Virus record (IMG/VR): IMGVR_UViG_3300021426_000007
Location: 1-64,000 of that record
DNA: 64,000 bases
Direction: 5' to 3' (one strand)
Source: a virus
Taxonomy: Duplodnaviria > Heunggongvirae > Uroviricota > Caudoviricetes
Positions 6,546-64,000 of this stretch are shown here, in pieces. Under the pieces are notes generated by a model, which was not told the DNA's origin, did not search any database, and was given only the letters and a program-made list of their open reading frames with translations. A program made the position numbers and the translations under genes. Numbering within the stretch: the stretch's first letter is position 1; every line of letters begins with the position of its first letter.

Positions 6546-6552
6546 ATGGAGC

Positions 6553-7376: not shown

Positions 7377-7378
7377 AT

Positions 7379-9090: not shown

Positions 9091-9105
9091 ATCTTTTCTC
9101 CTAAA

Positions 9106-11477: not shown

Positions 11478-11578
11478 ATCTTCTCCTGTCCAAAATCTTC
11501 TACTTTCCTAATAGGGAAGTGGGTATATACCGTACAACGGTACGCGCTTAATATACCCACACCCCCTATGGTCGAGAC

Positions 11579-48268: not shown

Positions 48269-50707
48269 ATGGCGAATATACCAGTCAATGCCCCTGACTC
48301 TGCCAAGATTGCAATGACAAAGGGAGTAGGCTCGGTTGGCGGATCGCTTAATATGGTATCTGGTTCTAATTCTGGAGGTAGTGTTAGCCCGCTAGTGCAG
48401 AACTATACAAGCTATTTAACCAGTAAGCCTTTTGACAATCAGAAGAATTATACTTCTAAGCCTGTTACTATGGCAACGACAGCTACGGGTATTAACTATG
48501 GTACACCGATTGGGCCGGTTAAGCCGAGTACTACTACGAGTTCTTCGGGGCAGACAAGTGGTACTACGAAGCCTGCGAGTAGCTCTGGCAGTGGGGTAGA
48601 TTACAATAAACTAAGGCAGCAATTAGTCGATTCGGGAATAACGGATAATAAATCCTTGAATGCTGCCCTCGCACAACAGGGTCTTGCCCCTGTAAATGAT
48701 ACAACAAAAGCGACGCCGCTTCCAAGCGGTAGCCTAGCAGGGACGGTATCAAACCCTGTATATAACTTACTAAAAGGATATGGCGCTGGTGTTCAGGCAG
48801 CGGGTCCGGGCAAGGCGTCGCTTATCGGCCCTACTGGAGAAGTACGTGCGGTGGACGCGAACGGTAACGTCGTTGGCCCCGGCAATACTGTGAATATGAC
48901 GCCCCCAGGTCAGACTCCTCAAGGTCAGACTCCTCAAGGTGAAACTCCTAATGATGGCTCCGGTGGGGGCGGTTCTGGTGGAGGAGGCGGGGGAGGATAC
49001 TCTGCCGCTGCCTTACTAGGTCAGCTCGGCGCAGGCACCGGACTAACCCCGTTAGGAACCGGTACGGGTACAGGAACTCCATATGTCCCTATTAGCACAT
49101 CAGCCGTTAATTCCGCTGATGCGGCAGCGGCTTACGCTCAGTTACTGAAGCAGTCCGGGTATGATCTGAACCAACCGCTTTCTAATATTGCTCTTCCAAA
49201 CAGAGTTGATCTTCCGAAGGAGGTTGCCTTACCAGAAGGGTTTAATTTCCAGGATGCATGGGATCGTGCAGCTGATGTGGATATCGGGCGTGTGGATCGT
49301 GTTACTACCCATCCGGAAGAGGAGATGCTCGGACAGATCCGTGATCTCCAGAGTCAGCAGGCTATTTTGTCTGCGGACAATACTGTTAACAACGGCATCG
49401 CTGAACTCCAGAGAGTAATGCAGGACGCTCAGAAGCAGTATCAGGACCAGAGAAATCAGATTGCAATGGACGAGCAGAGAGCTCTGGATAATCAGGCTCT
49501 TTACAGTGAGGCTCGTGGTGACCGTGGTGGTATAGGACAGGCTCAGTACAATACAATTCAGAATACCGCTGCTACAAATAGAATGACTGTTCAGCAGGAA
49601 CAGACTCAGCTGGCTACGGATACGGCAAGGCAGATTGCGGATCTCCGTTCTCAGGGCGAGTTTGAGAAAGCCAATCAACTTCTTAACATCTCTCAGAAGT
49701 ATCTGTCTGAACTTATGGATCTTTACCAGTGGGCAAAAGAGACGAACGTCAGTATTGATGAGTTCAATCTCCAGGTTGCTCAGTGGGAAGAGAACTTCAA
49801 GCTCAGTCTGGTTGGTGCAGAGCTGGATGCTGATGCGTTCAATCTGAATGTGGCCAATGCCATGATCGACCAGCAGAATAATCTGTTCAATGCGAGATTC
49901 AACCAGGAGAACAGCCTGTTCGATGCAAGACTCAATGCGGCGAAACTCCAGAATGATGAAGCGGCTGCTCGGCTCAATGCCCAGCTTAACGCAGCTAATG
50001 CTGTTGGTGCATTCGCTAACGGTACACCGACATATGCAGCACAACAAGACGCTATTGCCAACCAGCTTAAAGAGAGACAGCTTCTGGCGGACGTCGGTAC
50101 CACACTTATTAAGGAAGGTATTCAGCCCTCGGCTGCGCTCCTTAACGCAATGGGTATGGGCGGTATGGCGGCATCTGCGGATACTACCGGTACGCTTAAT
50201 AATGTTCTATCCCAGCTCGGATATTCCGACGCCTCTTCTGCTCTAAGAGCAATGGGTGTTGGTAATGCCGGTTTTGCTGGACTCTCGGCAGCGGGGATTA
50301 CTCCGGAGCAGTATCTCGCAGAAGCGTTCGGGGTTCCGACTTCCGGACTTCCTACGCTGAATACGGGTCTTGCCGCATCTGGCGGTGATGCGATGCTGTC
50401 TCAGCTTAACGGCTCGTATCAGGAACCGAGTATTCTTGACCAGTTGGGGCTGACGAATTCCGCCAGTGAGGTAGCGGCATATAGCCAGCCGACGGTACAG
50501 CAGCAAAGCCCCGGATTACTTGATCAGCTTGGTTTGTCTGAATACAGTCAGCAGCCAACATATACAGATGCTAATGTCTATGCCGCATTCGGAGCCGATC
50601 CTGAGACTGTTCTTCGGTCCATGGGTGTAGGCGCAGATGGTATGGCCGGTCTTGCATATCTTGGATTATCCCCAGCACAATTTATAGGACAGGCATTTGG
50701 TTTATAA
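48269..50707 (+). CDS. large Gly-rich/coiled-coil virion protein (812 aa; ejection or tape-measure-like)
   Basis: GQTPQGQTPQGETP, GGGGSGGGGGGG linker, long Q/N/A-rich coiled coil, three C-terminal LRxMGVGxxGxAGL...P.Q...AFG repeats. Confidence 0.55.
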   Translation: MANIPVNAPDSAKIAMTKGVGSVGGSLNMVSGSNSGGSVSPLVQNYTSYLTSKPFDNQKNYTSKPVTMATTATGINYGTPIGPVKPSTTTSSSGQTSGTTKPASSSGSGVDYNKLRQQLVDSGITDNKSLNAALAQQGLAPVNDTTKATPLPSGSLAGTVSNPVYNLLKGYGAGVQAAGPGKASLIGPTGEVRAVDANGNVVGPGNTVNMTPPGQTPQGQTPQGETPNDGSGGGGSGGGGGGGYSAAALLGQLGAGTGLTPLGTGTGTGTPYVPISTSAVNSADAAAAYAQLLKQSGYDLNQPLSNIALPNRVDLPKEVALPEGFNFQDAWDRAADVDIGRVDRVTTHPEEEMLGQIRDLQSQQAILSADNTVNNGIAELQRVMQDAQKQYQDQRNQIAMDEQRALDNQALYSEARGDRGGIGQAQYNTIQNTAATNRMTVQQEQTQLATDTARQIADLRSQGEFEKANQLLNISQKYLSELMDLYQWAKETNVSIDEFNLQVAQWEENFKLSLVGAELDADAFNLNVANAMIDQQNNLFNARFNQENSLFDARLNAAKLQNDEAAARLNAQLNAANAVGAFANGTPTYAAQQDAIANQLKERQLLADVGTTLIKEGIQPSAALLNAMGMGGMAASADTTGTLNNVLSQLGYSDASSALRAMGVGNAGFAGLSAAGITPEQYLAEAFGVPTSGLPTLNTGLAASGGDAMLSQLNGSYQEPSILDQLGLTNSASEVAAYSQPTVQQQSPGLLDQLGLSEYSQQPTYTDANVYAAFGADPETVLRSMGVGADGMAGLAYLGLSPAQFIGQAFGL

Positions 50708-50722
50708 AGGAGAGAATAGCTT

Positions 50723-53700
50723 ATGGCTAATACAAAAAAGCCCGATGAAAATCAGGTAACACAGACTGATCTTGCGTCAATTCTTGCACCTCCTTCTTGG
50801 TCGCAAGCCGCAGAGACGTGGACTCCGAAAACAAATGAAGAGATAAAGACAATTGTTTCTGAGGCCGAGCAAAAAGGCCAGATAGCAAGAAACGATTCCG
50901 GCGCATTTGAGGCTACGCCTAAGCTGCAAGAAGAGGCTGATATAATTAGGGAGAGAAATAGAGAAAATGACATTTCTTCTATTCTAGCCTCTGCTCCAAC
51001 ACCGAAAGACACTTTGTCGATTGCTAAAGCGTATCAGGACTCTGGTCGTGATATAAATACGGCTAAAGAAGAACTGAAGAGTGTGACTCAAAAGGCCGAG
51101 GAGAGAGCCTCTAACACTTCTGATATCAAACGCCAGAACAAAACTTTCGAACGAGATAAGACTGCCTGGAGAGATACGGAAGGAACTACGGGTTCCAAGC
51201 GTAATGAAGTAAATAAAGACGACGGCTCTTACCACTGGGAGGGGCACGTGGACGAGGATGGTAACTGGGTCTCTGGTCTGGCTGAGTGGGCCCAAGATAA
51301 CGAGGGAAGAATCTTTTCCGAAATTGACGCTTATGATACGAATGACGGAAAAACATTCCTTACAGAAGAGGAGATCCAGGCGCATCAGCAAGAAACGGCT
51401 AACCTTTATTATGACTGTGGGGAGCTGGCGGAATATACCCAGAAGGTTGTTGATGACTTAAAAGCCAAATACGCAACTGCTTCGGATGCGGATAAGGAAG
51501 CCCTCGATGCAGAGATCAAAAGACACGAGAGCAACATTGAGACGTATAAGGGCTGGCAGAATGCCGCGAAAGAGATATACGACGGATGGAGTTCGAGGAA
51601 TGATTACTTCGATTCCATGGATGACAACAAAAAGAAAAACGTCAATGACCCGGCTCAGTATAAGTCCTATGGCGGCGACACCCCGGAGAATATTCAGAAG
51701 GCCATAGACAACTATGAGTATGCTATTAAACAGCAGCAGGATTATATTGACACGAATGCCGGATATGTGACCGACCCTATGAGCGAGGCTACAATAGGAG
51801 CTGAGATAGATAAGCGAAGAGCAGATATCGTAGAGTATAAGGCTCGTAGGGACGAACTTCTGGATAACCTGGCCCTGGCTGAGGCGCATAAACTTGAACT
51901 CGAACAGCAGAATGCCGATCTTGAACTTAGACGTAAGTACGCACTTATTACCGGACAGGACGAAAGTGGTAAGAACAGCGTAATCCATGCTCCTAAGGCG
52001 GATGATTGGAAGAGTATATCCGTTGAGCTGAATACGCAACTTTCGAATGCCATAAAGGCAGGTAACGAAGCTGAGGTGGCTAGTCTCACTAATGAGCTTC
52101 GTTTTGTAGATCAGCAGTTTGAGGAGTTTACAAAATCTGATCTACAACAAAAGTACATAAGTGTCAGTGACGAAGAGCTCGATAAGGCTATTGCCAAGTT
52201 CACTTCCGCCACGGAAGAAAAGCAGGGCAAGGAAGCCGGAAACCAAGAGAAGGCAAGTACTGTTCCTGTTCGTACGGCGGATGATATTAAAGCGGAGATA
52301 GCAAAGCTTCATCCGGAAAAGGACCGAGACAAGTACACCGCTCTGGTTAATGAGCTTAACAGCCTCGGTAATCCCTCAGATACTGTTACAGAAGTTGCTA
52401 CCACTGAAGAGACTCCTGCTGAGGAGAAAGAGCTTACGGATGCGGAGAAGTGGGAGCTTGATATCCTACTTCAGGAAAAAGAACGCCGTGAGATGGAAAA
52501 GCTTTTCCAGACGGAGTATGTAGCGAAATATGACGATCAAGCGGCTTTGAAGTGGTACGAAGAAGCGACAGCAAAAAAAGACGCTGCACTCAATGATCTG
52601 TACAAAGCCCTTAATTCTGCCAACCCACAGGCCGGTAGAATTAGGGCCGCGAATCTGGAAGGCATTGCGGATGATGCAGCAAAAGAGGCTGCTTATGCAA
52701 GGATTAAGTACGAGGAAAGTCTTCTGTCCAGCCCGAGTATTAATACGGACGTAGCAAAAGGGATGGCGCTTGCCCCTAGCATCGGTGATCTTCAGACCGC
52801 GTTTGGGTCGATAGTTCCGTCCGATAAGGGTGGGGCTCGTAACAGGGGAATTCTAGCAGGGCTTAATATTACCGGGGAAGATGCCGACAGTATTATTTCT
52901 ATGCTGAATTCAATCGGTGTAAGTGCTAAAGACTTTGTACCGAGAGTAGAGGAGACGACAGAGGGAGAAAACCCGACCAGCATATACGCCCGTGGCAAAA
53001 CAGCTAGAAACTGGACGCAGTCAGAGCTTGACATTTATTATTCCTTATGGGCGAAGGAAGGTGCTGCTGCGGCTGCGAAATATGCTTTTGAGGTAAACTC
53101 TGTTATTGGGCGCAATTATCACGACCAGATCCTCAAGACGATGATTGACGTAAAAACATATGACGCTGAGCATCGTACTGGGGAATTTGTGACTGAAGCC
53201 CTGCTTGCACCGTGGGTGACCAATCCTCTTAATATAACCGCACTCGCTGACTTTGCTGCTACAACTAGCCAGGTACGGAGAATAGGGACTGCGATGACGA
53301 GTCCTACTAGCTTCACACCTAGTGAGCTTGGGAATATGCTAACGACGGCGCATTCCACTGCGATTCAGGAAACTGCGACTTACCCGCAGCTTGCGTCTCT
53401 GTTATATAACTCCTATAACTCCGCAGTTGGTAGTGTTGAAAGCGCAGCAATTGGTAACGCTATAGGAAGTGGTCTTTCCGCAGCATTAGGTCTCGGACCG
53501 GACGCTCTTGCAGTTACGCTCGGGTCTAAGACATTCCATCTTAAAGATAACGCTGCTCAAGCTATTGCTAGAAGCTACACACAATTATCATTCTTCGGAA
53601 GTGCAGCCGCTCGGTCCTATGATGATTTCATTAAGCGCGGAGTAGAGCCGGGTAAAGCGTGGGGTGCTGCTCTCGCGGCTGGTATGGCCGAAGCTTTCTT

Positions 53701-56700
53701 TGAAGACTTCTCGTTTGATAAAGTCTACGATGCTATTAAGACCGGCCATATTATCGATACGGCTGGGGCTTTCTGGGGTAACCTCGCCGCAAGCTCCGGT
53801 ATAGAAATGTCTGAAGAAGTCTTCACCGAGATGTCTAACTTTATTACCGAGAATATGATTCTCGATAAGAACAGTTCCTTCTGGGTTGCTGTTAATAACT
53901 ATCACGGCTATGGTGGAATGAGCTATGCGGAAGCACTGAAGCAGGCATTAAAGGACGAGAGTGAAGAGATCGGTATGGCTGCCGCATCCGCCATTATCTC
54001 CTCGATGGGTTCAGTAGGTATTCCTTCTGGTATAAGCTACGTAGAGTTCCAGAAGCAGACAGCGCAACAGGCAAAAACACTTGGCGAACGTATTGTCAAC
54101 GGTACCGAAACAGCTAAGGACCTCGGTAAGAAACTCGGAGAGTTCTATTCTACCTTTACACTCGTAGAGGCAGGACAGGAAAATACTCTTACTAAAGGCC
54201 AGAAGCAGGACCTCGATACACTCCACGGTCTGGCAGAGAAGGCTAAAGAAGGCACCGCTACAGCAGAAGAACTCGGTCAGTTGGCACTTCTTGCAAAGCG
54301 TCTGGATAAAGGTTCTTACTATGCCTTTGTTCGGGATAACAAGGACGCATGGAACTACATCTCCAATGGCGATGCTTCTGCTGCACAGATAGACTACCTC
54401 GCTTCTCTCATTGGTGAAGAGAACGTGAATAAGTTTATCCAGGCCAGCCTGGAGAACCCGGATGCATTTATTGCGGACGATTTCGTTGCCGGACTTCGTG
54501 AGGCTACTGGTGTTACAACCGAGGAAGCCCTGAAGATTGAGAATGCTCTCGGCCTTGTAGTGGCTGGAACAAAGACACGTTCGGAAGCCCAGATCCGTAA
54601 GGCTCTGAATGAAGCTTTCAAGAGCGACGCTGCAAAGACCTACGCTCTGAACTACATCTCGGATAAAGTCCAGCAGTTCAACCAACAGAAGGGAACTAGA
54701 CAATATACTCTTGCCTCTGCAAATTCTGAGTCTGCGATTAGCCCGTGGCTGTATACTGTAAATAGCGAAACCGTTACTTCTGACTTTGAGCAGACAATGG
54801 TTAACGTGTGGTCCGGTGTACAGAGAGCAAACGAGACTCTTAACCTTGCAAACCAGGCACGGGCATTAGAACAGTTCAACGCCAAGAAGAGTGCTACTTC
54901 TGAGAGCGTAATTCGTCAGGCCAGAACACAGACCGACGGTATAGAGAACTTCCGTGACGACTCCGATATGGTTCGACTCAACGGGAAGGAATATATTAGA
55001 AAAGATTTTCTGGAGTCCATCGGAAAGGGCATTAACCCGATAACCGGGGAGTCCTTCAAGAACGGTACACCTACGCAGGATCAGGCAAATATCTACTTTG
55101 ACAATCTTCTGCGCAATGCCCTGACAAACGATGCATTCATTAATATAGTAGATGCGTCAGGTACGATGAAGAACTACGATGCCTGGCAGGAAAGTTTAAA
55201 TACAGGAGATATAGAAAATGGACGAGCAAGCGTACGTGTTAGTGAAAATGCCGGACGGAACGAAACTGCGGGTCAAAGCAGAGTCGGCGGACCAGTGGCT
55301 GGATCTGAAACCGGAGGAGTGGGAACAGCACAACCAGTTCATACAGAAGGATCTGGAGAAGCTGGAGGATCTGCTCAAGAAGTAAAGTTAGCCACCTTCG
55401 ATAAAAACGGCGAGCACGACATTACCATAAAAGGTGAGATAACGCTCGATACCGCTGGTATGACCGAGGAAGAAGTTGAGGCACTTGACAATCTCGACTC
55501 CGGTCTGAAAGTTGCAATTACTCAGGCGATGGCCGCTGGTGTCGATAGGATCATGATTGTTAACGGCAGCATGACGAACTCGAACGGCAGAGTCATTGAC
55601 GGCTTCTTCGGCAATACAAAAGTCGAAGGAAAGAGGAAGTATACGATTGTCGTGTCTTCTACCGGGGATCAAGCAGGTCTTACCAGTACTTTCCGTCACG
55701 AATTAATGCACCGCCTTATCAGCGGAATGAACGCTAAAACGAAGAGAGCTTTTCTCAATACGATTCTGGAGACGGCTTTTGCCGGGCGTTCTGAATTGTA
55801 CGAGACGATCTTCGATATATATGTCAAGTACGCATATGGCCGAGAGTATGGTGCGGCCAATATTAAGGACGGTATTCTTTCCTTAAATAAAGAGATCGTC
55901 GAAGACATCGACGAGGAAATGGTGTGCGATCTCTTTGGTGGTATAATGACCTGGGCTCGTCGGTCTCAGGATTCCGCCATCGGTGAGTTCTACCGTGAAG
56001 CCTACAACAGAATCGAGAGATTGGTTGCAGATACCGGACTGTTCGATTATGTCAGAAGCAACTGGGGTAAATCCGAGCGGAACCAGAAAGGTACGCTCGA
56101 TATCTCCGAATTCAAGGGAACGCAGGCCAACGCATTTGGTAAGAGATGGAACGGACGTAAGGTAGAGATACCGTACTCCCGTACAGAAATTAGTAGGCTT
56201 ATGTCCGAGCTCCGTAAGGACTTCAGACATATGAGTGACGAAGAGTTTGCGAAGTTCGAGCAGCGGGTCAACGGTATGGAGACTCAGCCGGGTACTAGAC
56301 AGAACCAGCTCTATACGGCGGCAGCTATGGAAATAATTGCCGAGCATGAACGCCGTGCAGCTGAATCCCGGACAGAGGAGCCTACGGATACCCAGACCGA
56401 AGAAGAGACTACAGAGGCTGCTGAGGAAACTGCGGAGACTACGGAAGAAACAACTGAGGCTACAGAAGAGACCGAGGAGGTACCGGAGGAGAAACCCGCA
56501 GAACGTCTGGCAAATAACAATATGACCGCCGAGACGGATGAGGACTTTGATGCTATTCGGAATACTCTGATGAAACTGAAGAACAAAGAGTCCTTCTACT
56601 TTAACTATAAGGATCGTCAGTTCGTTATCACTGTAGACGAGTCCACTGACTGGGGCTCGGTATATAAGATCGCTCTGACCAACAACGGCCAGCTGTGGAT

Positions 56701-59700
56701 AAAGGTACCTATCGGGGACGCTTCTTCCGCACAGGAAGCTATTGACTTCATCCGCGCACGGATGGACGATACAGAAGAGACGACCCAGGAAGCAACGGAA
56801 ACTGAGCTTGACAAAGGCCAGCAGTATCTGAACTTCCTCCGCACAATGTCCGAGCAGTCTGGTGAAATGAACGAGGATGACTTCGATGCGATGTTTGGCA
56901 GTGCTACCGACGAGATCCTTCGTGGTATTGTCGGAAGAGAAGCCACAGATGACTTCGAACGTAGAGCTATCGAAGCTGCTCAGAAAGAGATCGATAGACG
57001 CGCAGCAGAAGATAAGGCCATTGCTGAACAGGATAGTGTACAGGAAGAAGTCGCAGAAGAGGCTCCGGCTACTGAGGAAGCAGCTCAGGTGGAGGAACCG
57101 GCGACTGAAGAGAAACCCGCACCGAAGAAACGCGGCAGAAAAAAGAAAGAGCCTGCTGCGGAGAACGGCATACAGACAAAAGAAAATCTTCGCGCCAGCG
57201 AAGAAAAAGGTAGGTTTGTTAACAAGCGGAAATGGACCGACAAGACTACCAGCCCGACTGATGGAGAGACGATTACCCGGACACAGTTTGTGGAGCGTAT
57301 GACGACCACCGGCTGGGACGAACTTGACGACTTCGGCTATCCTACTCACATGACTATGGCGGAAGCTCAGGACATGTTCGACGAGTGGCTGATGGAAGAT
57401 AGAGACGGTGGCGGAGAGACAATGTACAGCATCACTGCTGACGAAGCCTTCGACGCGCTTATGCCTACTCCTATTGAAGAAGAGACTATTGAAACGAAAT
57501 TCAGTATGCTCGACGAGCAGCACAACGAGTGGGCTCCGGTGTTCTACAGTAAGATGCAGAACGTCATCGAAGACTGGACAGCCAATAGCGGCAAGAAGAT
57601 GCCCGAACGCATGGGCGCTGGCAGTGTCGTGTCTTGGCTGAAAGGCAAAGGCGTAAAGGACGAAGAGATCAAGTGGTCCGGTATCGTACCTTACCTTGAA
57701 GGAAAGAAGTCCGTTAGTAGAGACGAGCTGCTTCAGGTCATGACTGAGAACCAGTTCGAGATAGAGACAAAGGTTCTTGGTAATGACTTCCTTGGAATAG
57801 AAATTACTAATCCAATAACAGGAGAAACTTCTCTAGAGTATGACCTCGATGCGGCATATACGCAAGCGCGTTCAATAGCGGATGCCCTTGGCTATAACCA
57901 GGATACAGTTGAATACCGACCGGAAGACGATGTATTTGCTGCGGCCAGATCCTGGGGGGACGAATACGAAGTATTTCTCGATGCCAAGTCTGTGTTTGAT
58001 AGAAGCAGAGAAGGTGAACCGCAGTGGGCGCAGTATACACTCCCTGGCGGAGAGGATTATAGGGAAATCCTGTTTAAAGCCCCGAATTCCGACTACACTA
58101 ATCAAGCGATGAGGAACCATTGGGGGAGAGACGCCAAAGGAATTCTGGCTTTTGCTCGTGTGGATGACAGAGTTACGAAAGACGGCAGTAAAGTTCTTTT
58201 CGTAGAAGAGATTCAAAGCGACTGGCATAACGCCGGAGCGAAGAATGGTTTTGACGCTGGCCGGAGGATATTCGAACTCGAGGGTGAATACACTCGTCTA
58301 AAAGATAGGTGGGAGAGCCTAGATAGGGATATATTCAGAAACAGCCCATACCAACATGAGTTGCGTACGGCTATGAGAAAATTGCTGGATTTCGATAATG
58401 CTCTTCGTATCCGTCGTTTTGTTGATTCTACAAATTCTCCGACTGTTAACTCCGTTTCTAATTGGATAAAGGACGCGTCGTACAAAGTCATACCTGGAGC
58501 AGAAACCACCCCAGAACTTAATAGCTATATATTTGAATTCCTGTCTGATACCGAGAGAGAAGCTATAAATGAGCTTCGCGAAAGATACCAAGAGGTAAAG
58601 CAAGCTAAAGCTGACGCTGATAACTTTTTAAAAGAAAACAAGGTGACAGAAGAGCAGCTTAACAGGGCCAAATTAGAGTTCCCGGACGATGTTCCTTTTG
58701 CCGGTACCTCTGATACCTACCACGAATACGTGATGAAGCACCTGCTCCGTATGGCAGCAGAAGGCAACTACGACAAGATCGGCTGGACCACAGCACAGCA
58801 ACAGTCAGATCGTTGGAGCGATGACTACGCAGAAGGCTACCGTATCGAATACGACCAGAACATCCCGAAGTTCATGCGCAAGTACGGCAAGCAGTGGGGT
58901 GCTACTGTAGGCTCTACTGTTCTGGAGAATGGCGAGGAAGTCTGGAGTGTGGATATCACACCCGAGATGAAGGAAGATGTCCTGTATAAAGGGCAGACTA
59001 AGTTCTCCATTACAAGCGATCTGTATAACGAGTATGGTGTAGACATCGATACTGCTGAAGATTCAGAGCTCGAATCCTTATCTGATCAGATTACTAAAGC
59101 ATACGACGAAGCTAAAAAAGAGCAGGCTGATATCCAAAGCACTTGGAATTCGAACGACTATGCTTCCTTGAGTGCGGATGAATACTGGGCTCGTCATCAT
59201 GAGTGGAGTGAACAGTCCGGTATCGATGCTGTAAAACGGCGCGTCGATAAACTTGGCTCTTATAACCGTGCCATTACAAAAGAAAAAGCCTGGAGAGCGA
59301 TTGACCCCGAGGCTCTTATTCAAAAGGCAAAAGATATCTACGGAACCACTGATGACTTCCGGAAATCTGGATACATCCTACCGGATGGAACGATGTTGGA
59401 TATGTCTCAGGGGGCCAACAAGCGGACTCTGTTCCACCATGAGACCGCGCAAGAAGTTCTGTTCGCTTTGAAATATCCGGCTTCAGACGCAATTGAAAAA
59501 TTCGTAGGTCGTGGTGGGGCCATCAGAATCGATGTAGACTCCGATGGTATTGATATTCCGCAAAGTGGTATGACCCCGGCTCAGTACGAAACCCTGCGCG
59601 ACTTTCTTTCTGACTTCATAGCTACTGAAGACTACGATAGAGCAGCATTCTATGTATCTACTTTTGGTAAGAACATAGGAACGTCAGAGAGATTTAATCC

Positions 59701-62700
59701 TTCCAATACCACACAGATCTTAAACGCAATCCGCCAGTACTATGATACTGGGTCTTTCCCGAAGCAATCAACAACACAACAGTTCTACGGCAGGTTCAGC
59801 ATGGTTGATACCGAGGCTGTAACACTGGATGAACTTCAGACGGCTCGTGATGAGATGCTTGATCTGCGTCAGCAGCTCAGAGATCGTAAGGCTGATGTCG
59901 ATGAGTGGAGCCGTAGAATTATGGCTGGTGAAGCTGAGATCGACGACTACAATAGGTGGCTGTCCGATAGCGGTTACAACAGACTCTACATGCAGGAACG
60001 TGAGGCAAGCAAACGGTATAACGACCTCAACCGCGCTTATGACGAGCAGCAGGAGAGAGCGAATGCCGAAGCCGAGCAGAATGCAATAGAGCAGTCCGGC
60101 TTATCTGAAGCAGATTACTTTGGCAAAGAAGCCGTAAAGGTATTCGGTTATACACCGTACTTCTACGACGCTGGGTACATTACTCCGAACGGACGGATGC
60201 TGAACTTCTCTGGTGAGAAGGGTAAGCACTATGGCTCTCGTGGTCAGGATCATCGGAGCATAGGCCAGATCTTTGCAGTGACTTCCGGCACAGAAGCCAT
60301 GAATAGGTTTATCAACTACGGTAATATCCGTATTATGGCAGAGGCTCCAGGTTTGGATATCAGCGCGGATATCGAGCCGACAGCAGAGCAGTACTCCAGG
60401 ATCCGTGACTTCGCAAGGAGCGCACGAGATGAGGACTACTTCAGCATCGATATCACGGACGAGGATGGTAGGGTCATTGATACAATCGAGTACGATAGCG
60501 TCAACCCGACGAAGATAGTAAATGACCTGAAGAACTATTACCGTACTGGCGAAGTTCCGCAGCAGTCTATAACAGAGCAGTTCCATAGTAAATATGCTAT
60601 TCTGCATGACGTGGTAGATGAAAATGGGCGGACCTACGACAATGTCGTAATGGTTGACAAGACCTTGCCTAGTAGTATCATCGACAATAACAGGGAGTTC
60701 AATAAATTTGTTAAGGCTAATTTCGCGGGCCTTACCCTTGGAACGGTTGATGACTATGGTATACCAGAGACAATTCAGTTCGCCAGCAAGAGGGACAGAG
60801 TACGCAGAAACGGTAATTCTAGAAATGCGATTACAGAACTGGCCTATGGGCGTGGACGCGACAGAACCGTCCGTCTCGTGTACCTTAACGCAGACGAGAT
60901 TGTACAGACGTCAACTTTCTGGAACTATTCAGAGCAGAACCCAAATCCGAACGAGAACCATCAGGGCTTTGATCAGAACGGCTGGGAATACAGGCGAGCA
61001 TATCTTCTCTCAGGCAATACCATCTACCCTGTAACGTTGAACATTGCCCAGACAGACGATGGGCGCAGTGTTCTTTACTTCGCACGGGTAGAAAAAAATA
61101 AAGCCGTTGGTGTCGAATACGAGGCCACAAGCAGGAATAATCCTGGAGTGGACCTCAACAGAGCTCCAGAAGTACTGGGCTCTATCAACACCTCAACGGC
61201 TGAGTCTATTATAGATGAGGCCGACGAAGATGTCAAGTCGCAAGATGTGGACGAAGAACCGCTTCTCGACGACTATGATACGGATGTTAAGTACTCTATT
61301 GCTGTCTCCGATCCCGATACACTGGCTTTCCTTAATGACCAACTGGAAAGCGGCGAGGTAACTCATACATACAAAACTTTCCTTGAAATTGTTGATGAGG
61401 ACGGCAATGTAAATCTTTACCCGCCAATGGCCTCCATGCAGAAGGTCGAAGTACAAACAAAGAGCGGTAAGACCAAGACCCAGAAGCAAATGGCCAATGC
61501 TATGCACGTCGGCGTCTGGGAAGAGTCTGTTGGTAATCCGAACTCGAAAAATATTATCCCGGATGTGTACGATAAGGGCCCGAATAAGGGCGAGCAGAAA
61601 GTAGACGAGCACGGTAATAAAAAATGGCAGTATAAACTTCAGAAAGAAGATCCGGATCTTTCAGATGTGAATGCGGCCTATGATCCATATCAGCACTCGA
61701 GCAATGTCGTTTTGAATGATCAGTTTGAGTCAGCATGGAAGCGCCCTGGGCTAGTAACTTACGAATGTGTTATTCCAAACAGCGAATTAACAAGCGACTA
61801 TTGGTACGGAGTAACAGATCCTGACAGGGCAAGAAGGGCCGACGGAGAAGTGATAACTGCGGCTTTACCAGTTGGCATGCATGAGTGGCACAAAGGCGTT
61901 ATTGCGGGAGGGCTAAAAAATACAGACCGTCAGGTCTATATGACCAGATGGCTTATGCCAATCCGAAGAATGGACAACAGCGAAGTCGCGAGGATGTACA
62001 AGGAAATTCTTGATGCTGAGTCTGAACCGATCTCTGTTCCGTATAATGTCGTGCCGCCCGGGTTGCAAGAAGAGCTGGAAAAGATTGGCGTTCCTATTAA
62101 CTACGAAGGCACTGCTGGGTTTCAATCTCTCCGTGGAAGATATGGCGAAGAGGATTATCCAATAGGAAAAAGAATCGCGGAAGAGTCAGATACAAGGTTC
62201 TCTGCTCTGTCTATTGACCCGGCTTCCACTTACGACGCATTCGGTGATGAAGTTGAAGTTTCCAACATCAACCCGACAGTTACACAGTCCATGCTCTCTG
62301 ATCAGCTCTTCTACTCCGAAGACGGTAATACGGCGTATTACCAGCTCGACACTGGCGAAACCGTAGTATTAGATAATGTAGGAGAAGACTCTCCCGAAGC
62401 ACGATACATTAATTACTTGGAGGCAATGAACAATGCCAACAGTTCTAACAATACCACAGCGCAACCTTATACAATACCTCCTGCAACTCGGAATGCCTCT
62501 GATGGATATAATCTCGGTGAATCGAATGATGGCTTACGACGAGGAACGGAAGAAGTTCCTGCGCCGGATCAAGAAGGAGCACTTCGACGCACAGGAAGCA
62601 CTACAGAACGCAATGGCCAGAGTGAACCGCAGAGTAAGGAGACGGAAGGTGTAGACAGCAAGTTCGCAGTTTCTGTCAGCGAGGTCTTTGAAAACGACAA

Positions 62701-64000
62701 AGGCGATCCGGACAGAAATATCTACGACGAAGACGGTAACTTAATTACCACTGCCAGCACATACCCGCTTGGCTCTGACGAGCTGTTCTTCTTCGACGCA
62801 ATGGAACGCGGCGACTTCTCTGATATGGAAAAGCTTGTCCAGGAATACCGGGATAAAGGCTACACCGTCAGCGAGTCTACCTTCGATCTGTTGTCCAGAA
62901 TGGTTGAACAGAACGACAACATGACTCCGGAACAGCAGGAAGCTATGCAGAGAGCTGTTGGCGAAGCCAGAGCGAAGTACGGAACACTCAGAGGCAACGA
63001 CGTCGGTAAAGTGGAAAGCACTATTCCGGCAAGGACTAACGCGGATACCAAGACCAGAAGACACGTCGGAACGGTAGCTATCAATACCAACCAGGCGATG
63101 AACGATGCTCTTACCAACGAGACCATGGTGAATGAGATCCTCGGTTATACACCGCAGTCGAATCCTGAAACCCTCGAAAAAGCAAGAGCACTTCTCCGGT
63201 CTCAGTATGACGGCGATATCGATAAGGCTATCAACCACATCGCAGACCTGGTGAACAGCGGCACGATGCCGACAGCAGCTGACGTAGCACTGGCAGAGAT
63301 CGTTATCACCGAGCTGGCAAATGACGCGAGCGACCCGCTTCGCCTGAACAAGGCAGTTAAGGTCACCGCAGATCTGGCAGTACTCGGAACGAACTTAGGC
63401 CAGGCTGTACAGGCAATGTCCCTTATTCGGAAGCTTACTCCACGCGGACAGATGTATTATCTGAACGGTGTCGTTAAGCAACTGAATAGACAATACGCTA
63501 CCCAGATCCGGAATGGTAAGATGCAACCCGTTCGTATAAACGACGCGCTTCTTGCCCAGCTCTTCGCAGCTACCGATAGGGAAGGGATCAACACGGCTAT
63601 AGAGGCTATAAAAGACAACCTTGCTGAGCAGATCCCGGTAACTCTGTGGGATAGATGGAATGCCTGGAGATATCTCGCTATGCTGGGCAATCCCAGAACC
63701 CACATCCGTAACCTTCTTGGTAACGCTGCCTTTGCGCCTGCTGTATTTATGAAGGACATGATCCTGAGGCAGTTACAGCAGAACACCAAATGGGTAGATC
63801 CGAGTGCCAGAACAATGGGCAAGGCGGATCTCTCCGGATGGCTTAATAAGAAAGGTAGTTCGAACCCGTATGTAGACTATGCGATTAAGGACTTCGGCCT
63901 GATGTCCGATGTGGCGAAGGGAAAGAAAGTCGGGAACAAGTACGCAGATATCAACGACATTCTCAGCAGACGTAAGATGTTCCCACTCGAAGGACTTAAC
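50723..64000 (+). CDS. giant multidomain protein, at least 4,426 codons, 3' end beyond window (candidate virion-packaged polyvalent/injected protein)
   Basis: AAAGGAGAG RBS + ATG 50723. No stop in this frame to position 64000: the ORF track lists no frame-2 plus-strand ORF after 50707, and manual translation is continuous. Includes HExxH (FRHELMH 55691-55711), AT-hook-like PKKRGRKKK (~57122), acidic TEE repeats (~56380-56520), duplicated GYI-P-G-ML-S-G segment (~59369 and ~60173). Confidence 0.75.
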   Translation, partial: MANTKKPDENQVTQTDLASILAPPSWSQAAETWTPKTNEEIKTIVSEAEQKGQIARNDSGAFEATPKLQEEADIIRERNRENDISSILASAPTPKDTLSIAKAYQDSGRDINTAKEELKSVTQKAEERASNTSDIKRQNKTFERDKTAWRDTEGTTGSKRNEVNKDDGSYHWEGHVDEDGNWVSGLAEWAQDNEGRIFSEIDAYDTNDGKTFLTEEEIQAHQQETANLYYDCGELAEYTQKVVDDLKAKYATASDADKEALDAEIKRHESNIETYKGWQNAAKEIYDGWSSRNDYFDSMDDNKKKNVNDPAQYKSYGGDTPENIQKAIDNYEYAIKQQQDYIDTNAGYVTDPMSEATIGAEIDKRRADIVEYKARRDELLDNLALAEAHKLELEQQNADLELRRKYALITGQDESGKNSVIHAPKADDWKSISVELNTQLSNAIKAGNEAEVASLTNELRFVDQQFEEFTKSDLQQKYISVSDEELDKAIAKFTSATEEKQGKEAGNQEKASTVPVRTADDIKAEIAKLHPEKDRDKYTALVNELNSLGNPSDTVTEVATTEETPAEEKELTDAEKWELDILLQEKERREMEKLFQTEYVAKYDDQAALKWYEEATAKKDAALNDLYKALNSANPQAGRIRAANLEGIADDAAKEAAYARIKYEESLLSSPSINTDVAKGMALAPSIGDLQTAFGSIVPSDKGGARNRGILAGLNITGEDADSIISMLNSIGVSAKDFVPRVEETTEGENPTSIYARGKTARNWTQSELDIYYSLWAKEGAAAAAKYAFEVNSVIGRNYHDQILKTMIDVKTYDAEHRTGEFVTEALLAPWVTNPLNITALADFAATTSQVRRIGTAMTSPTSFTPSELGNMLTTAHSTAIQETATYPQLASLLYNSYNSAVGSVESAAIGNAIGSGLSAALGLGPDALAVTLGSKTFHLKDNAAQAIARSYTQLSFFGSAAARSYDDFIKRGVEPGKAWGAALAAGMAEAFFEDFSFDKVYDAIKTGHIIDTAGAFWGNLAASSGIEMSEEVFTEMSNFITENMILDKNSSFWVAVNNYHGYGGMSYAEALKQALKDESEEIGMAAASAIISSMGSVGIPSGISYVEFQKQTAQQAKTLGERIVNGTETAKDLGKKLGEFYSTFTLVEAGQENTLTKGQKQDLDTLHGLAEKAKEGTATAEELGQLALLAKRLDKGSYYAFVRDNKDAWNYISNGDASAAQIDYLASLIGEENVNKFIQASLENPDAFIADDFVAGLREATGVTTEEALKIENALGLVVAGTKTRSEAQIRKALNEAFKSDAAKTYALNYISDKVQQFNQQKGTRQYTLASANSESAISPWLYTVNSETVTSDFEQTMVNVWSGVQRANETLNLANQARALEQFNAKKSATSESVIRQARTQTDGIENFRDDSDMVRLNGKEYIRKDFLESIGKGINPITGESFKNGTPTQDQANIYFDNLLRNALTNDAFINIVDASGTMKNYDAWQESLNTGDIENGRASVRVSENAGRNETAGQSRVGGPVAGSETGGVGTAQPVHTEGSGEAGGSAQEVKLATFDKNGEHDITIKGEITLDTAGMTEEEVEALDNLDSGLKVAITQAMAAGVDRIMIVNGSMTNSNGRVIDGFFGNTKVEGKRKYTIVVSSTGDQAGLTSTFRHELMHRLISGMNAKTKRAFLNTILETAFAGRSELYETIFDIYVKYAYGREYGAANIKDGILSLNKEIVEDIDEEMVCDLFGGIMTWARRSQDSAIGEFYREAYNRIERLVADTGLFDYVRSNWGKSERNQKGTLDISEFKGTQANAFGKRWNGRKVEIPYSRTEISRLMSELRKDFRHMSDEEFAKFEQRVNGMETQPGTRQNQLYTAAAMEIIAEHERRAAESRTEEPTDTQTEEETTEAAEETAETTEETTEATEETEEVPEEKPAERLANNNMTAETDEDFDAIRNTLMKLKNKESFYFNYKDRQFVITVDESTDWGSVYKIALTNNGQLWIKVPIGDASSAQEAIDFIRARMDDTEETTQEATETELDKGQQYLNFLRTMSEQSGEMNEDDFDAMFGSATDEILRGIVGREATDDFERRAIEAAQKEIDRRAAEDKAIAEQDSVQEEVAEEAPATEEAAQVEEPATEEKPAPKKRGRKKKEPAAENGIQTKENLRASEEKGRFVNKRKWTDKTTSPTDGETITRTQFVERMTTTGWDELDDFGYPTHMTMAEAQDMFDEWLMEDRDGGGETMYSITADEAFDALMPTPIEEETIETKFSMLDEQHNEWAPVFYSKMQNVIEDWTANSGKKMPERMGAGSVVSWLKGKGVKDEEIKWSGIVPYLEGKKSVSRDELLQVMTENQFEIETKVLGNDFLGIEITNPITGETSLEYDLDAAYTQARSIADALGYNQDTVEYRPEDDVFAAARSWGDEYEVFLDAKSVFDRSREGEPQWAQYTLPGGEDYREILFKAPNSDYTNQAMRNHWGRDAKGILAFARVDDRVTKDGSKVLFVEEIQSDWHNAGAKNGFDAGRRIFELEGEYTRLKDRWESLDRDIFRNSPYQHELRTAMRKLLDFDNALRIRRFVDSTNSPTVNSVSNWIKDASYKVIPGAETTPELNSYIFEFLSDTEREAINELRERYQEVKQAKADADNFLKENKVTEEQLNRAKLEFPDDVPFAGTSDTYHEYVMKHLLRMAAEGNYDKIGWTTAQQQSDRWSDDYAEGYRIEYDQNIPKFMRKYGKQWGATVGSTVLENGEEVWSVDITPEMKEDVLYKGQTKFSITSDLYNEYGVDIDTAEDSELESLSDQITKAYDEAKKEQADIQSTWNSNDYASLSADEYWARHHEWSEQSGIDAVKRRVDKLGSYNRAITKEKAWRAIDPEALIQKAKDIYGTTDDFRKSGYILPDGTMLDMSQGANKRTLFHHETAQEVLFALKYPASDAIEKFVGRGGAIRIDVDSDGIDIPQSGMTPAQYETLRDFLSDFIATEDYDRAAFYVSTFGKNIGTSERFNPSNTTQILNAIRQYYDTGSFPKQSTTQQFYGRFSMVDTEAVTLDELQTARDEMLDLRQQLRDRKADVDEWSRRIMAGEAEIDDYNRWLSDSGYNRLYMQEREASKRYNDLNRAYDEQQERANAEAEQNAIEQSGLSEADYFGKEAVKVFGYTPYFYDAGYITPNGRMLNFSGEKGKHYGSRGQDHRSIGQIFAVTSGTEAMNRFINYGNIRIMAEAPGLDISADIEPTAEQYSRIRDFARSARDEDYFSIDITDEDGRVIDTIEYDSVNPTKIVNDLKNYYRTGEVPQQSITEQFHSKYAILHDVVDENGRTYDNVVMVDKTLPSSIIDNNREFNKFVKANFAGLTLGTVDDYGIPETIQFASKRDRVRRNGNSRNAITELAYGRGRDRTVRLVYLNADEIVQTSTFWNYSEQNPNPNENHQGFDQNGWEYRRAYLLSGNTIYPVTLNIAQTDDGRSVLYFARVEKNKAVGVEYEATSRNNPGVDLNRAPEVLGSINTSTAESIIDEADEDVKSQDVDEEPLLDDYDTDVKYSIAVSDPDTLAFLNDQLESGEVTHTYKTFLEIVDEDGNVNLYPPMASMQKVEVQTKSGKTKTQKQMANAMHVGVWEESVGNPNSKNIIPDVYDKGPNKGEQKVDEHGNKKWQYKLQKEDPDLSDVNAAYDPYQHSSNVVLNDQFESAWKRPGLVTYECVIPNSELTSDYWYGVTDPDRARRADGEVITAALPVGMHEWHKGVIAGGLKNTDRQVYMTRWLMPIRRMDNSEVARMYKEILDAESEPISVPYNVVPPGLQEELEKIGVPINYEGTAGFQSLRGRYGEEDYPIGKRIAEESDTRFSALSIDPASTYDAFGDEVEVSNINPTVTQSMLSDQLFYSEDGNTAYYQLDTGETVVLDNVGEDSPEARYINYLEAMNNANSSNNTTAQPYTIPPATRNASDGYNLGESNDGLRRGTEEVPAPDQEGALRRTGSTTERNGQSEPQSKETEGVDSKFAVSVSEVFENDKGDPDRNIYDEDGNLITTASTYPLGSDELFFFDAMERGDFSDMEKLVQEYRDKGYTVSESTFDLLSRMVEQNDNMTPEQQEAMQRAVGEARAKYGTLRGNDVGKVESTIPARTNADTKTRRHVGTVAINTNQAMNDALTNETMVNEILGYTPQSNPETLEKARALLRSQYDGDIDKAINHIADLVNSGTMPTAADVALAEIVITELANDASDPLRLNKAVKVTADLAVLGTNLGQAVQAMSLIRKLTPRGQMYYLNGVVKQLNRQYATQIRNGKMQPVRINDALLAQLFAATDREGINTAIEAIKDNLAEQIPVTLWDRWNAWRYLAMLGNPRTHIRNLLGNAAFAPAVFMKDMILRQLQQNTKWVDPSARTMGKADLSGWLNKKGSSNPYVDYAIKDFGLMSDVAKGKKVGNKYADINDILSRRKMFPLEGLN

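Follow-up and report, generated by a model that had tools for sequence, protein, structure and literature searches.

The window, a 64,000-nt stretch of phage DNA, closes on a single giant open reading frame (ORF). Terminase, portal, capsid, fibre and lysin genes lie upstream on the same strand, a late, virion-gene neighbourhood like that of phage polyvalent proteins. An earlier reading made without database searches (the sequence-only reading) had placed the ORF behind a lysis cassette and directly downstream of an 812-amino-acid (aa) Gly-rich/coiled-coil protein. The cassette is plausible: an NlpC/P60 and PG_binding_1 protein is encoded upstream, together with two small proteins that have hydrophobic, transmembrane-like segments as judged by eye. 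The 812-aa gene is present as described. Its product matched nothing in Pfam or PHROG, and we regard it as a candidate partner internal virion protein; in three relatives (L158, L159 and L160) an 812-aa homologue likewise precedes an ORF that has no stop before the contig ends. The giant gene begins 15 nt past the stop of the 812-aa gene, and the Shine–Dalgarno-like AAGGAGAG directly behind that stop suggests that the two genes are translationally coupled (Table 1).

We confirmed that the ORF runs for more than 13.2 kb (at least 4,426 aa), contains no stop and is open at the window end. The remaining five frames hold between 54 and 391 stops each over positions 50723-64000, and when the region was shuffled 200 times, the longest run without a stop was on average 108 codons and never exceeded 175. 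A sequencing or assembly error that caused false read-through and fused several genes had been named as what might undo this picture, and we consider the chance of such an artefact practically negligible. Besides the shuffles, it is contradicted by the independent relative L002, which has a whole, complete ORF of 4,985 aa, and by the long open N-terminal portions in the three relatives named above, one of which spans 1,634 aa at 33% identity to aa 132-1466. Homologues that share its frame architecture are, moreover, common, and the longest of the best 150 reaches 4,308 aa. Database homologues in the same frame cover aa ~132-1744 and aa ~2135-4426 of the giant ORF; no relative was found that covers aa ~1745-2134. 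The ORF is a genuine phage gene of more than 4,400 codons. L002 extends ~1,100 aa past the point aligned with the window end, and the window covers positions 15-339 of an 877-position profile of the C-terminal module described below. We estimate the full-length protein at ~5,000-5,500 aa, as the 4,985-aa relative suggests, so that it equals or exceeds the largest members of its family.

Table 1. Positions of the giant gene, its upstream neighbour and the segments of the encoded protein, in window coordinates.
Feature	Coordinates	Strand	Residues in giant protein	Basis or remark
812-aa Gly-rich/coiled-coil gene	48269..50707	+		ORF; precedes giant gene
Shine–Dalgarno-like AAGGAGAG	50707..50714	+		sequence read directly; 8 nt upstream of ATG 50723
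Giant ORF	50723..64000	+	4,426 sense codons	frame 1; open at window end
Acidic, helical, fast-evolving N-terminal region	50723..53002	+	1-760	composition, close relatives
Ala/Gly/Ser-rich domain (N-proximal 'frame')	53408..54145	+	~896-1141	iterative search
HELMH domain	55289..55954 (motif 55697-55711)	+	1523-1744 (motif 1659-1663)	homology to L002, P0021
Acidic T-E-E repeats	56441-56479	+		motif coordinates
Small domain	inside 56441..57154	+	~1960-2075	no relatives found
Basic PKKRGRKKKEP stretch	57122-57154	+		motif coordinates
EEIQSDWH domain	57530..59047	+	2270-2775	GNAT-fold core with long helical insertion
~210-aa domain, copy 1 (ILPDGTML)	59195..59803	+	~2825-3027	homology to copy 2
~210-aa domain, copy 2 (ITPNGRML)	59939..60583	+	~3073-3287 (motif 3153-3160)	homology
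LAYG domain, ~185 aa (ELAYGRGR)	60590..61162	+	3290-3480 (motif 3372-3379)	homology
Conserved domain	61280..62122	+	3520-3800	45% identity to L002 aa 2640-2890
Lineage-specific segment ahead of C-terminal module	62210..62917	+	3830-4065	
C-terminal module, first ~40%	62924..64000	+	4068-4426	profile match, E = 4.6e-101
GQAVQA (in C-terminal module)	63398-63415	+		
WNAWRYLAMLGNPRTHIRN / WNAWRYLAMLGNPRTHIRNLLGN block (in C-terminal module)	63656-63724	+		motif present

The N-terminal third had been described as long, helical and of low complexity, and our analysis agrees: the region is helical, low in complexity and acidic, with 20-23% Asp + Glu over aa 1-600. Relatives of aa 1-760 were absent from the local protein set, and among close phage relatives the region is open and conserved, at 65% identity in L158 and 33% in L159; the neighbouring 812-aa protein of L158 is 96% identical, against 65% for the giant N-terminal region. 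The Ala/Gly-rich domain that follows was recovered by iterative search in 83 proteins that bear the C-terminal module, where it invariably occupies aa ~300-650. The 2,001-aa orthologue encoded by L003, a syntenic smaller relative, has it too (E = 4.7e-18), and the giant protein of phage LS06 gives a weak match (E = 1.5e-5); the domain contains a single, mildly hydrophobic 19-mer.

A zincin-like HExxH had been noted in the next domain. The HELMH motif is indeed there, 3 nt from the coordinate first given, but it is not conserved: the only homologues of the domain (L002 aa 271-497 and P0021 aa 69-310) read HEMLK and HVSME at this position, leaving the first His alone invariant among the three sequences. 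The domain matched no Pfam or NCBIfam peptidase family and no PDB profile, and iterative search from it gave no link to DUF6782. From its motif, it may be zincin-like. The T-E-E repeats and the PKKRGRKKKEP stretch, both present as reported, are linker or low-complexity segments. No relatives were found for aa 1770-2075, and aa 2100-2265 are collinear with P0021.

The EEIQSDWH domain has a GNAT fold. Its family shows an invariant E-E-x-Q-S-D...G at the position expected for the beta4-alpha3 motif, where GNAT acyltransferases, including the toxins AtaT and TacT and the GNAT families of polyvalent proteins, have a canonical Q/R-x-x-G-x-G/A. The motif here, Q-S-D-W-H-x-x-G, is non-canonical, a helical insertion of ~150 aa breaks the fold, and the domain did not match any GNAT family in Pfam. 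By its fold it is a candidate acyltransferase. The same domain also occurs as a 711-aa protein in the T7-like internal-virion-protein operon that encodes the 961-aa protein discussed below.

Two homologous ~30-aa segments had been recognized in the middle of the protein. The duplication is real, and the segments proved to be the cores of two full copies of a ~210-aa domain (33% identity, E = 8e-18) for which Pfam has no model. Copy 1 matches the same region of more than 100 proteins with ART-PolyVal or LPD23 domains, and copy 2 is up to 62% identical to proteins carrying these domains; the copy 2 domain is also found in the LS06 giant and twice in L002. The adjoining LAYG domain is 56% identical to L002 aa 2159-2348, and iterative search found it in ~22 proteins, for example P0282 (aa 904-1088, after ART-PolyVal). 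The conserved domain at aa 3520-3800 recurs in P0259 and P0180, both of which bear the C-terminal module, and the segment at aa 3830-4065 is conserved in L002 and P0001 only.

The C-terminal module links the protein to virion proteins. It is almost wholly alpha-helical, ~850 aa long and without a Pfam model, and we found it in 14,419 protein cluster representatives, mostly at the C-terminus of proteins of 1,400-4,300 aa. The 'conserved-looking' block near 63,650 pointed out by the sequence-only reading is present as WNAWRYLAMLGNPRTHIRNLLGN and is the most invariant motif of this huge family. The module aligned over 666 columns with a 961-aa T7-like family encoded after the nozzle gene in L006 (hhalign probability 97.9%, E = 4e-13; hmmsearch E = 2.7e-5). 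This family corresponds to phrog_6651, 'internal virion protein' (E = 5e-36), a label that derives from gene position after the nozzle gene and from annotation. Foldseek searches of BFVD returned 'Internal virion protein' entries of Pelagibacter phage EXVC018P and Synechococcus phages S-CBP3, S-CBP2 and S-RIP1 (E = 1e-9 to 1e-12). The module and phrog_6651, which comprises marine and freshwater T7-like podoviruses, cyanophages and pelagiphages, thus share a fold as well as the motifs W..G.L..P.TH.(K/R)NI.GN, EDxFFK and PF.(R/K)TP.NI. The module makes up most of a phrog_6651 protein (~900-1,300 aa), whereas the window protein adds more than 4,000 aa of N-terminal domains. These results show that the C-terminal module, of which the window holds the first 40%, is homologous to the internal-virion-protein family of marine T7-like podoviruses.

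Comparison with the T7 gp16 family proper was negative, both for the module alignment A5 (hhalign probability 0.3%) and for the marine family A7 (1.8%); the gp16 alignment comprised 17 members, close relatives only, so a very remote link could escape it. The 'internal virion protein' identity of the module therefore rests on the marine T7-like family. Searches of the module profiles against T7 gp16 found no match, and the giant protein has no detectable lytic transglycosylase or muralytic domain, the N-terminal trait of gp16. Neither T7 gp13-16 nor N4 gp50-53 nor the giant protein of phage phi24B showed similarity to the window protein. The link between the module and virion operons is not strict, since one stand-alone copy was found in a small integrated element that has no structural genes around it.

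The remainder of the protein has the character of a polyvalent protein. Polyvalent proteins are known from phages and conjugative elements; those of phages have their genes among the late genes, and their injection has been predicted (Iyer, Burroughs, Anand, de Souza & Aravind 2017, PMC5512222). Like them, the window protein is one very large polypeptide in which many disparate domains are shuffled together, and its gene lies among late virion genes. Unlike them, it lacks detectable signature domains: the whole protein and ten overlapping tiles matched no Pfam, PHROG or NCBIfam family, no PDB sequence was matched, and neither the curated polyvalent-protein domains nor the DarB-type methylase/helicase, MuF and ART domains that the sequence-only reading had proposed to look for were found in it. 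The relationship is carried by shared modules. Six of the at least nine separable modules recur independently and in different orders elsewhere, and such shuffling between relatives fits exchangeable passengers. At least five (from among the Ala/Gly-rich, EEIQSDWH, duplicated, LAYG, aa 3520-3800 and C-terminal modules) recur in proteins with polyvalent domains, where their partners are ART-PolyVal, LPD23, LPD3, PBECR5, ddrB-ParB, MuF_C, SNF2 with a methylase, and MPTase. L002 itself carries ART-PolyVal, LPD23 and a weak LPD3 match, and the L003 orthologue carries LPD3 together with the C-terminal module. ART-PolyVal is present in 7 of 17 proteins with the C-terminal module; others have LPD3, LPD23, PBECR5, ddrB-ParB, MuF_C, SNF2 with an Eco57I methylase, or a DUF6782 peptidase. 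The proposed likeness to virion-packaged polyvalent proteins is thus supported by the shared modules and by the homology of the C-terminal module, which, rather than MuF, is the presumed virion anchor.

Taken together, we think it likely that the product of the gene is a polyvalent internal virion (ejection) protein, packaged into the capsid and ejected at infection. Two frame modules, the N-proximal Ala/Gly-rich domain and the C-terminal ~850-aa helical module, would bracket an exchangeable array of passengers: the HExxH-bearing domain, the GNAT-fold domain, the two ~210-aa copies, the LAYG domain and one or more other conserved domains. The protein, encoded by the last gene of the structural operon, would be produced late and in translational coupling with the 812-aa protein, and the frame modules would steer a few copies into the capsid interior in the manner of the internal core proteins of T7-like podoviruses. 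At infection it would exit by way of the tail, either alongside the DNA or before it, with the frame modules helping to build or traverse a conduit across the cell envelope. The passengers, possibly freed by proteolysis, would then act early in the cytoplasm, either by modifying proteins or nucleic acids of the host or by opposing defence. The nearest relatives come from Clostridia metagenome bins, so the host may be Gram-positive, in which case a trans-periplasmic tunnel of the T7 type would not apply directly.

The model has published precedents. The IVP-D homologues N4 gp50 (the virion RNA polymerase, vRNAP) and Pseudomonas phage H66 gp60 carry passenger domains bound for the cytoplasm (Hardies et al. 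2016, PMC4819975). As in these proteins, a helical internal-virion-protein module is here fused to domains that probably act in the cytoplasm, within a very large gene in the structural region of a podovirus-like genome; unlike N4 gp50, the window protein has no polymerase or methylase domain and no detectable sequence similarity to it. The second precedent is phi24B gp47, a 2,811-aa polyvalent protein that proteomics detected in the virions of an Stx podovirus and for which packaging in the capsid and ejection have been proposed (bioRxiv 10.64898/2026.04.10.717836). Its counterpart in GenBank, which we equated with gp47 by size, is vb_24B_48 (2,807 aa), after which no further CDS is annotated in the record. 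Both giant proteins are polyvalent and encoded at the end of the late region. The phi24B protein has LPD5, LPD1, LPD38 and MuF-C domains, is about half the size and showed no similarity to any of our module profiles.

A polyvalent effector need not be packaged: the protein could be made late and act within the infected cell, in superinfection exclusion or suppression of defence, or could be delivered by another route. The homology to polyvalent proteins, which is solid, would fit this, as would the stand-alone module in the integrative element and the many relatives in bacterial contigs. We nevertheless find it unlikely, given that the gene is the last of a structural operon and coupled to its upstream neighbour, that the L003 orthologue is embedded among structural genes (between those for fibre and lysin), that the C-terminal module has its homologues in a family of internal virion proteins and that the analogous phi24B gp47 is physically present in virions. 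Conversely, the protein might be purely structural, a tape-measure-like, fibre or scaffold-like core protein in which the domains serve as spacers, not as enzymes or effectors. The acidic, low-complexity N-terminal third and the nearly all-helical C-terminal module accord with that, internal virion proteins being described as highly helical (PMC4819975), and neither the HExxH nor the GNAT cofactor motif is canonical or conserved. We doubt this reading strongly, because the middle modules are discrete, globular, and shuffled, duplicated and exchanged among thousands of proteins; proteins that share them carry bona fide enzymes (ART, GNAT, methylase, SNF2 and nucleases); one of them is a GNAT fold with invariant polar residues; and fibrous tandem repeats are absent.

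The sequence-only reading had also raised the possibility of a virion-packaged single-subunit RNA polymerase (RNAP) of the N4 vRNAP or T7 type, with TPNGR as the T/DxxGR motif and R-x4-R-x7-LAYG as motif B. Size and position at the end of the late operon do resemble N4 gp50, the two motifs are ~219 aa apart, and the 64-kb window has no other ORF of RNAP size. However, TPNGR belongs to copy 2 of the mobile ~210-aa domain and LAYG to a different mobile domain; the two domains are ~1,200 aa apart in L002 and separated by an ART domain in P0282, and the Arg of TPNGR is replaced by Gln in L002 and by Thr in copy 1. N4 gp50 was not matched (HMMER --max), nor was any solved RNAP in the PDB (E <= 1) or any RNA polymerase family in Pfam, and reports of N4-like vRNAPs are confined to N4-like phages, in which the gene neighbourhoods are stereotyped (PMC5512222). 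With variable motif spacing and no similarity to N4 or T7 RNAPs, we rejected this identity at the level of sequence tools, and consider it very improbable.

Giant polyvalent virion proteins are already known, and the protein described here is an unusually large form of them that overturns nothing. The principle of delivering passengers on an internal virion protein was anticipated for N4 gp50 and H66 gp60 (Hardies et al. 2016, PMC4819975); our literature search found no paper joining the terms 'polyvalent protein' and 'internal virion protein'. The analysis ties a ~850-aa module that lacks a Pfam model and is present in more than 14,000 clusters to the internal-virion-protein family of T7-like podoviruses. 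If the giant protein is packaged and ejected, the phage spends ~15 kb, roughly one-fifth of its genome, on one protein that is at once a part of the delivery machinery and the carrier of at least six effector-like domains, none of them in curated families. The module and the GNAT-fold domain, which recurs in internal-virion-protein operons, are both testable leads of wider use and could yield new injected enzymes or anti-defence activities. More tentatively, podovirus internal virion proteins may have given rise to a widespread and uncatalogued delivery chassis made up of the C-terminal module and the Ala/Gly-rich domain. Interchangeable effector arrays would then be injected by thousands of phages and prophages, above all in gut Firmicutes, and this would provide a concrete delivery mechanism for polyvalent proteins other than MuF. 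The giant gene would be the largest known cargo train of this kind, and its EEIQSDWH, ~210-aa, LAYG and aa 3520-3800 domains would be candidates for new enzymes acting in the first seconds of infection.

Frame 1 of 50723–64000 runs for 4,426 codons without a stop. The remaining five frames of the same interval contain 54–391 stops, and in 200 shuffles the longest stop-free run was 108 codons on average and never more than 175. The start codon, ATG at 50723, is 15 nt beyond the stop codon of the gene for an 812-aa protein, and AAGGAGAG is found 8 nt upstream of the ATG. All of the motifs listed in the sequence-only reading were found in this ORF. Relatives also carry long ORFs. L002, an IMG/VR relative on an 81-kb contig, has a complete ORF of 4,985 aa, in which aa 3283–3889 are 50% identical to aa 3828–4426 of the giant protein and which extends ~1,100 aa past the aligned stretch. 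On three other relatives' contigs (L158, L159 and L160) a homologue of the 812-aa gene is followed directly by an ORF that is open to the contig end. One of these ORFs (1,634 aa) matches giant aa 132–1466 at 33% identity, and the N-terminal third, described from the sequence as low-complexity, is therefore genuine, fast-evolving coding sequence. In L158 the N terminus of the giant protein (L158 3963–5201) is 65% identical to that of the window, and the neighbouring 812-aa protein (L158 1512–3947) 96%. Together, these relatives show that the ORF is no assembly artefact and that the very long frame first noticed in the sequence is real. The change from 96% to 65% identity to L158 marks an abrupt shift in evolutionary rate over the 15-nt gene boundary.

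The window contains only positions 15–339 of the 877-position profile of the C-terminal module, and the full protein should therefore have at least ~4,950 aa, or ~5,500 aa if its tail is L002-like. No exact match to the last 60 nt of the window was found in viral, metagenome or genome collections. The protein is strongly acidic (net charge of about −250, summed over 200-aa blocks), and promoter and terminator scans in and around the gene gave results at chance level.

The window is a phage genome (see table). A smaller relative, L003, is syntenic: its scaffold and capsid genes are followed in turn by genes for a 597-aa protein, the fibre, an orthologue of the giant protein (2,001 aa) and a lysin of the same type. 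The giant gene is therefore part of the structural module of its lineage. The host is probably a gut Firmicute, as the nearest protein relatives of the giant come from Clostridia metagenome bins. The lysin (phrog_14030, ELLD + PG_binding_1), which could be an endolysin or a virion-associated muralytic enzyme, is linked to the giant gene on opposite sides in the two phages: ~3.7 kb upstream in the window and directly downstream in L003 (13018–13896). The 497-aa protein encoded before it consists in part of several ~70-aa tandem repeats with the pattern T-I-N-K-x-A-V-T-V ... Y-T-Y-D-G-x-x-H; Pfam and PHROGs gave no match to it, and it may be adhesin-like or receptor-binding. The 812-aa protein carries at its C-terminal end two ~30-aa copies of the motif LR-x-MGVG-x-x-G-x-AGL...P-x-Q-(Y/F)...AFG. 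The major capsid gene is interrupted by an endonuclease ORF. As the region matches none of the Rfam intron models, it is either an intron of unclassified type with an endonuclease gene inside it or a split capsid gene.

Features of the window (nucleotides) and modules of the giant protein (aa, counted from ATG 50723)
Feature	Position	Strand	Remark
Helicase, family-A DNA polymerase, exonuclease and RNA ligase genes	492 to 10218	minus	
Large terminase, portal, scaffold-like and major capsid genes	from 25.7 kb	plus	
Major capsid gene, interrupted	31712–33855		
Capsid, N-terminal part	31712–32452		aligns with aa 4–236 of L003 capsid protein
GIY-YIG homing endonuclease ORF	32522–33229		between the two capsid parts
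Separate capsid ORF	33418–33855		alignment to L003 capsid begins exactly at aa 237
Weak SU10-adaptor-like gene, tail fibre genes, NlpC/P60 + PG_binding_1 lysin	downstream of capsid	plus	
497-aa protein	44431–45924		between fibre genes and lysin
NlpC/P60-type lysin	45912–47027		
Two small proteins with hydrophobic, TM-like segments	after lysin, before 812-aa gene	plus	judged by eye
812-aa protein, then giant gene	after two small proteins	plus	812-aa protein, 48269–50707
Acidic helical region	aa 1–760		conserved in close relatives only
Ala/Gly-rich domain	aa ~896–1141		in 83 proteins that also have the C-terminal module, always N-proximal
HELMH domain	aa 1523–1744		common to L002 and P0021 only
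Acidic repeats, small orphan domain, basic stretch	aa ~1900–2265		aa 2100–2265 collinear with P0021
EEIQSDWH domain	aa 2270–2775		411 relatives
~210-aa domain, two copies	aa ~2825–3027 and ~3073–3287		copies 33% identical, E = 8e-18; >100 relatives, identity up to 62%
LAYG domain	aa 3290–3480		~22 relatives (local set)
Conserved domain, function unknown	aa 3520–3800		in L002, P0259, P0180
Lineage-specific segment	aa 3830–4065		L002 and P0001 only
C-terminal module	aa 4068–4426+		continues past window end

Searches of Pfam, PHROGs, NCBIfam and PDB sequences with the whole giant protein and with ten overlapping tiles gave nothing significant. Megablast of 50,697 phage records found no match, and tblastn with aa 2581–4426 found one weak match only, to a 'methyltransferase' of Rhodobacteraceae phage LS06-2018-MD07. 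No curated family was thus identified; large-scale homologue searches and local iterative searches, from which the module map was built, showed a modular protein with many relatives. The Ala/Gly-rich domain is also present in the L003 orthologue and, weakly, in the giant protein of the LS06 phage.

The C-terminal end carries the block that had looked conserved by eye (WNAWRYLAMLGNPRTHIRNLLGN), which proved to be the most invariant motif of a module of ~850 aa; further invariant motifs are GQAVQA, LExED, PFKxTPxNI, EYSPxG, DWxAP, PTxxGQ and WGR. A word-index search with the C-terminal 598 aa returned 11 proteins only. An exhaustive profile (HMM) search with the module gave 14,419 cluster representatives (5,955 with E ≤ 1e-30), and in nearly all of these it forms the C terminus of a protein of 1,400–4,300 aa. 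The impression of a rare family is wrong, and the count of 11 is a sensitivity artefact; for a divergent, compositionally ordinary helical module, fast word-index searching was badly misleading on rarity.

The module profile matches a 961-aa protein of the T7-like phage L006 (E = 2.7e-5). Ahead of the gene for this protein come a nozzle gene, a gene with a weak match to phrog_418, an internal virion protein family, and then genes for proteins of 539 and 711 aa. When 16 relatives of the 961-aa protein were aligned with the module using hhalign, the match had 97.9% probability (E = 4e-13, 666 columns), with WINGLLSSPVTHAKNIAGN, MAEDEFFK and VPFVRTPTNI as corresponding motifs. In PHROGs the 961-aa protein is phrog_6651, 'internal virion protein' (E = 5e-36). 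A stand-alone module modelled with AlphaFold2 (pLDDT 76.9) is nearly all alpha-helical; in BFVD the model matched those of polyvalent proteins from gut viromes (E as low as 2e-56) and, with probability 1.00, models named 'Internal virion protein' from Pelagibacter phage EXVC018P and Synechococcus phages S-CBP3, S-CBP2 and S-RIP1. Profile, hhalign, PHROGs and predicted structure, four results in all, link the C-terminal module to internal virion proteins. HMM and phmmer comparisons returned no match to T7 gp13–16, N4 gp50–53 or the giant protein of phi24B, and hhalign gave none to the T7 gp16 family. A PDB profile search with the T7-like internal virion protein family (alignment A7) likewise yielded no hit. 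Because no homology to T7 gp16, N4 gp50 or the phi24B giant was found, the putative identity of the module is that of the marine T7-like family, which is itself labelled by gene position and annotation.

A second connection to the L006 block is provided by the EEIQSDWH domain, among the relatives of which is a large family of proteins about 700 aa long; P0030, a member of this family, is the 711-aa gene in the internal-virion-protein block of L006. The domain has a GNAT fold, interrupted by a helical insertion of ~150 aa, and is a putative acyltransferase. Its invariant E-E-x-Q-S-D, a non-canonical motif, lies at the beta4-alpha3 junction, where GNAT proteins bind their cofactor. T7 IVP-A also matches acetyltransferases (Hardies et al., PMC4819975). 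The 711-aa GNAT-fold protein (L006 10001–12136) matches positions 1612–2100 of phrog_7348, a 2,564-position profile labelled 'endolysin'; this label is misleading for the GNAT-fold domain and probably goes back to a lysin domain in another part of the giant multi-domain members.

The domains of the relatives place the protein in a wider class. In L002 we found ART-PolyVal (E = 3e-9), LPD23 (E = 1e-18) and a weak match to LPD3. ART-PolyVal is present in 7 of 17 proteins sampled for having the C-terminal module; others of the 17 have LPD3, LPD23, PBECR5, ddrB-ParB, MuF_C, a DUF6782 peptidase or SNF2+ResIII+Eco57I methylase. The duplicated and LAYG domains occur within proteins of 1,400–1,770 aa that also have ART-PolyVal and LPD23 and, in some cases, classical GNAT domains. 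In the L003 orthologue a true LPD3 immediately precedes the C-terminal module. Among phage relatives only one is annotated, the 'methyltransferase' of LS06-2018-MD07 (~3,100 aa; OP947163.1, locus 2536–11690). This protein has the Ala/Gly-rich domain at aa 346–477, a domain of the duplicated type at aa 1129–1285, a weak ART-PolyVal match, a methyltransferase at aa 1682–1781 and DUF7178. Its domains make it a polyvalent protein, despite the annotation. The second gene upstream, beyond one for a hypothetical protein, carries the annotation 'internal virion protein'. The order of modules varies among relatives. Polyvalent proteins, as defined by Iyer et al. 2017 (PMC5512222), have many domains, are encoded among late genes and are expected, by prediction, to enter the cell with the injected DNA. 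Given the domain content of its relatives and their varying module order, the giant protein fits this class, and the early comparison with virion-packaged, anti-defence polyvalent proteins is supported.

Other identities fared less well. The sequence-only reading had paired TPNGR with LAYG as motifs of a T7-like RNA polymerase. TPNGR is part of the second copy of the duplicated domain and LAYG of the next, independent domain; domains of the two types are ~1,200 aa apart in L002 and are separated by ART-PolyVal in the related protein P0282. The Arg of TPNGR is replaced by Gln in L002 (IPQGQML) and by Thr in copy 1. We found no resemblance in the giant protein to N4 vRNAP, T7 RNAP or any solved polymerase, and N4-type vRNAPs are reported in N4-like phages only (PMC5512222). 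With separate mobile domains, a non-conserved Arg and no polymerase similarity, the polymerase identity is refuted. The HExxH suggested as a zincin is HELMH in the giant protein, but HEMLK and HVSME in the only two homologues. Its local pattern, strand-like hydrophobic stretches followed by the motif segment, looks zincin-like when the sequence is read by eye; family, PDB profile (alignment A6) and iterative searches gave no support for a peptidase, and no link was found to the DUF6782 peptidases seen in relatives. The LAYG domain was considered as a divergent LPD3 because of the weak LPD3 match nearby in L002 and the true LPD3 of the L003 orthologue. An iterative search does not reach the LPD3 region of L003, and we therefore treat LAYG as a separate domain.

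We propose, by analogy, that the two frame modules, the Ala/Gly-rich domain and the C-terminal module, would guide the protein, in a few copies, into the capsid and then out through the tail at infection, and that the passenger domains between them would reach the cytoplasm, possibly after proteolytic release. The precedents are N4 gp50 and H66 gp60, in which IVP-D-like modules are combined with cytoplasm-bound passengers (PMC4819975); the Dar proteins of P1, together with MuF fusions and further polyvalent proteins (PMC5512222); and phi24B gp47 (2,811 aa), a polyvalent protein that proteomics detected in virions and that has been proposed to be an ejection protein (bioRxiv 10.64898/2026.04.10.717836). 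Against the analogy, the module is also found on its own, in a small integrative element that has no virion genes close by. This 790-aa copy (P0005; L004 4732–7104 and L005 1198–3570) is accompanied by an integrase, HTH regulators, a Rha-like protein, an HTH_17 excisionase-like protein and a 275-aa ORF, with an Abi_2 gene further downstream; the element may be a satellite or a defence island. As the host is probably Gram-positive, the periplasmic-tunnel picture of T7 is not directly transferable.

By sequence and by analogy, the giant protein is best classed as an extreme, very large polyvalent internal virion protein with passenger domains, a member of a class that is already known. In the literature searched, the terms 'polyvalent protein' and 'internal virion protein' did not occur together in any paper. 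No stretch of the giant protein matches a curated family, and a module that has no Pfam model and is present in >14,000 clusters is now tied, by these comparisons, to podovirus internal virion proteins.
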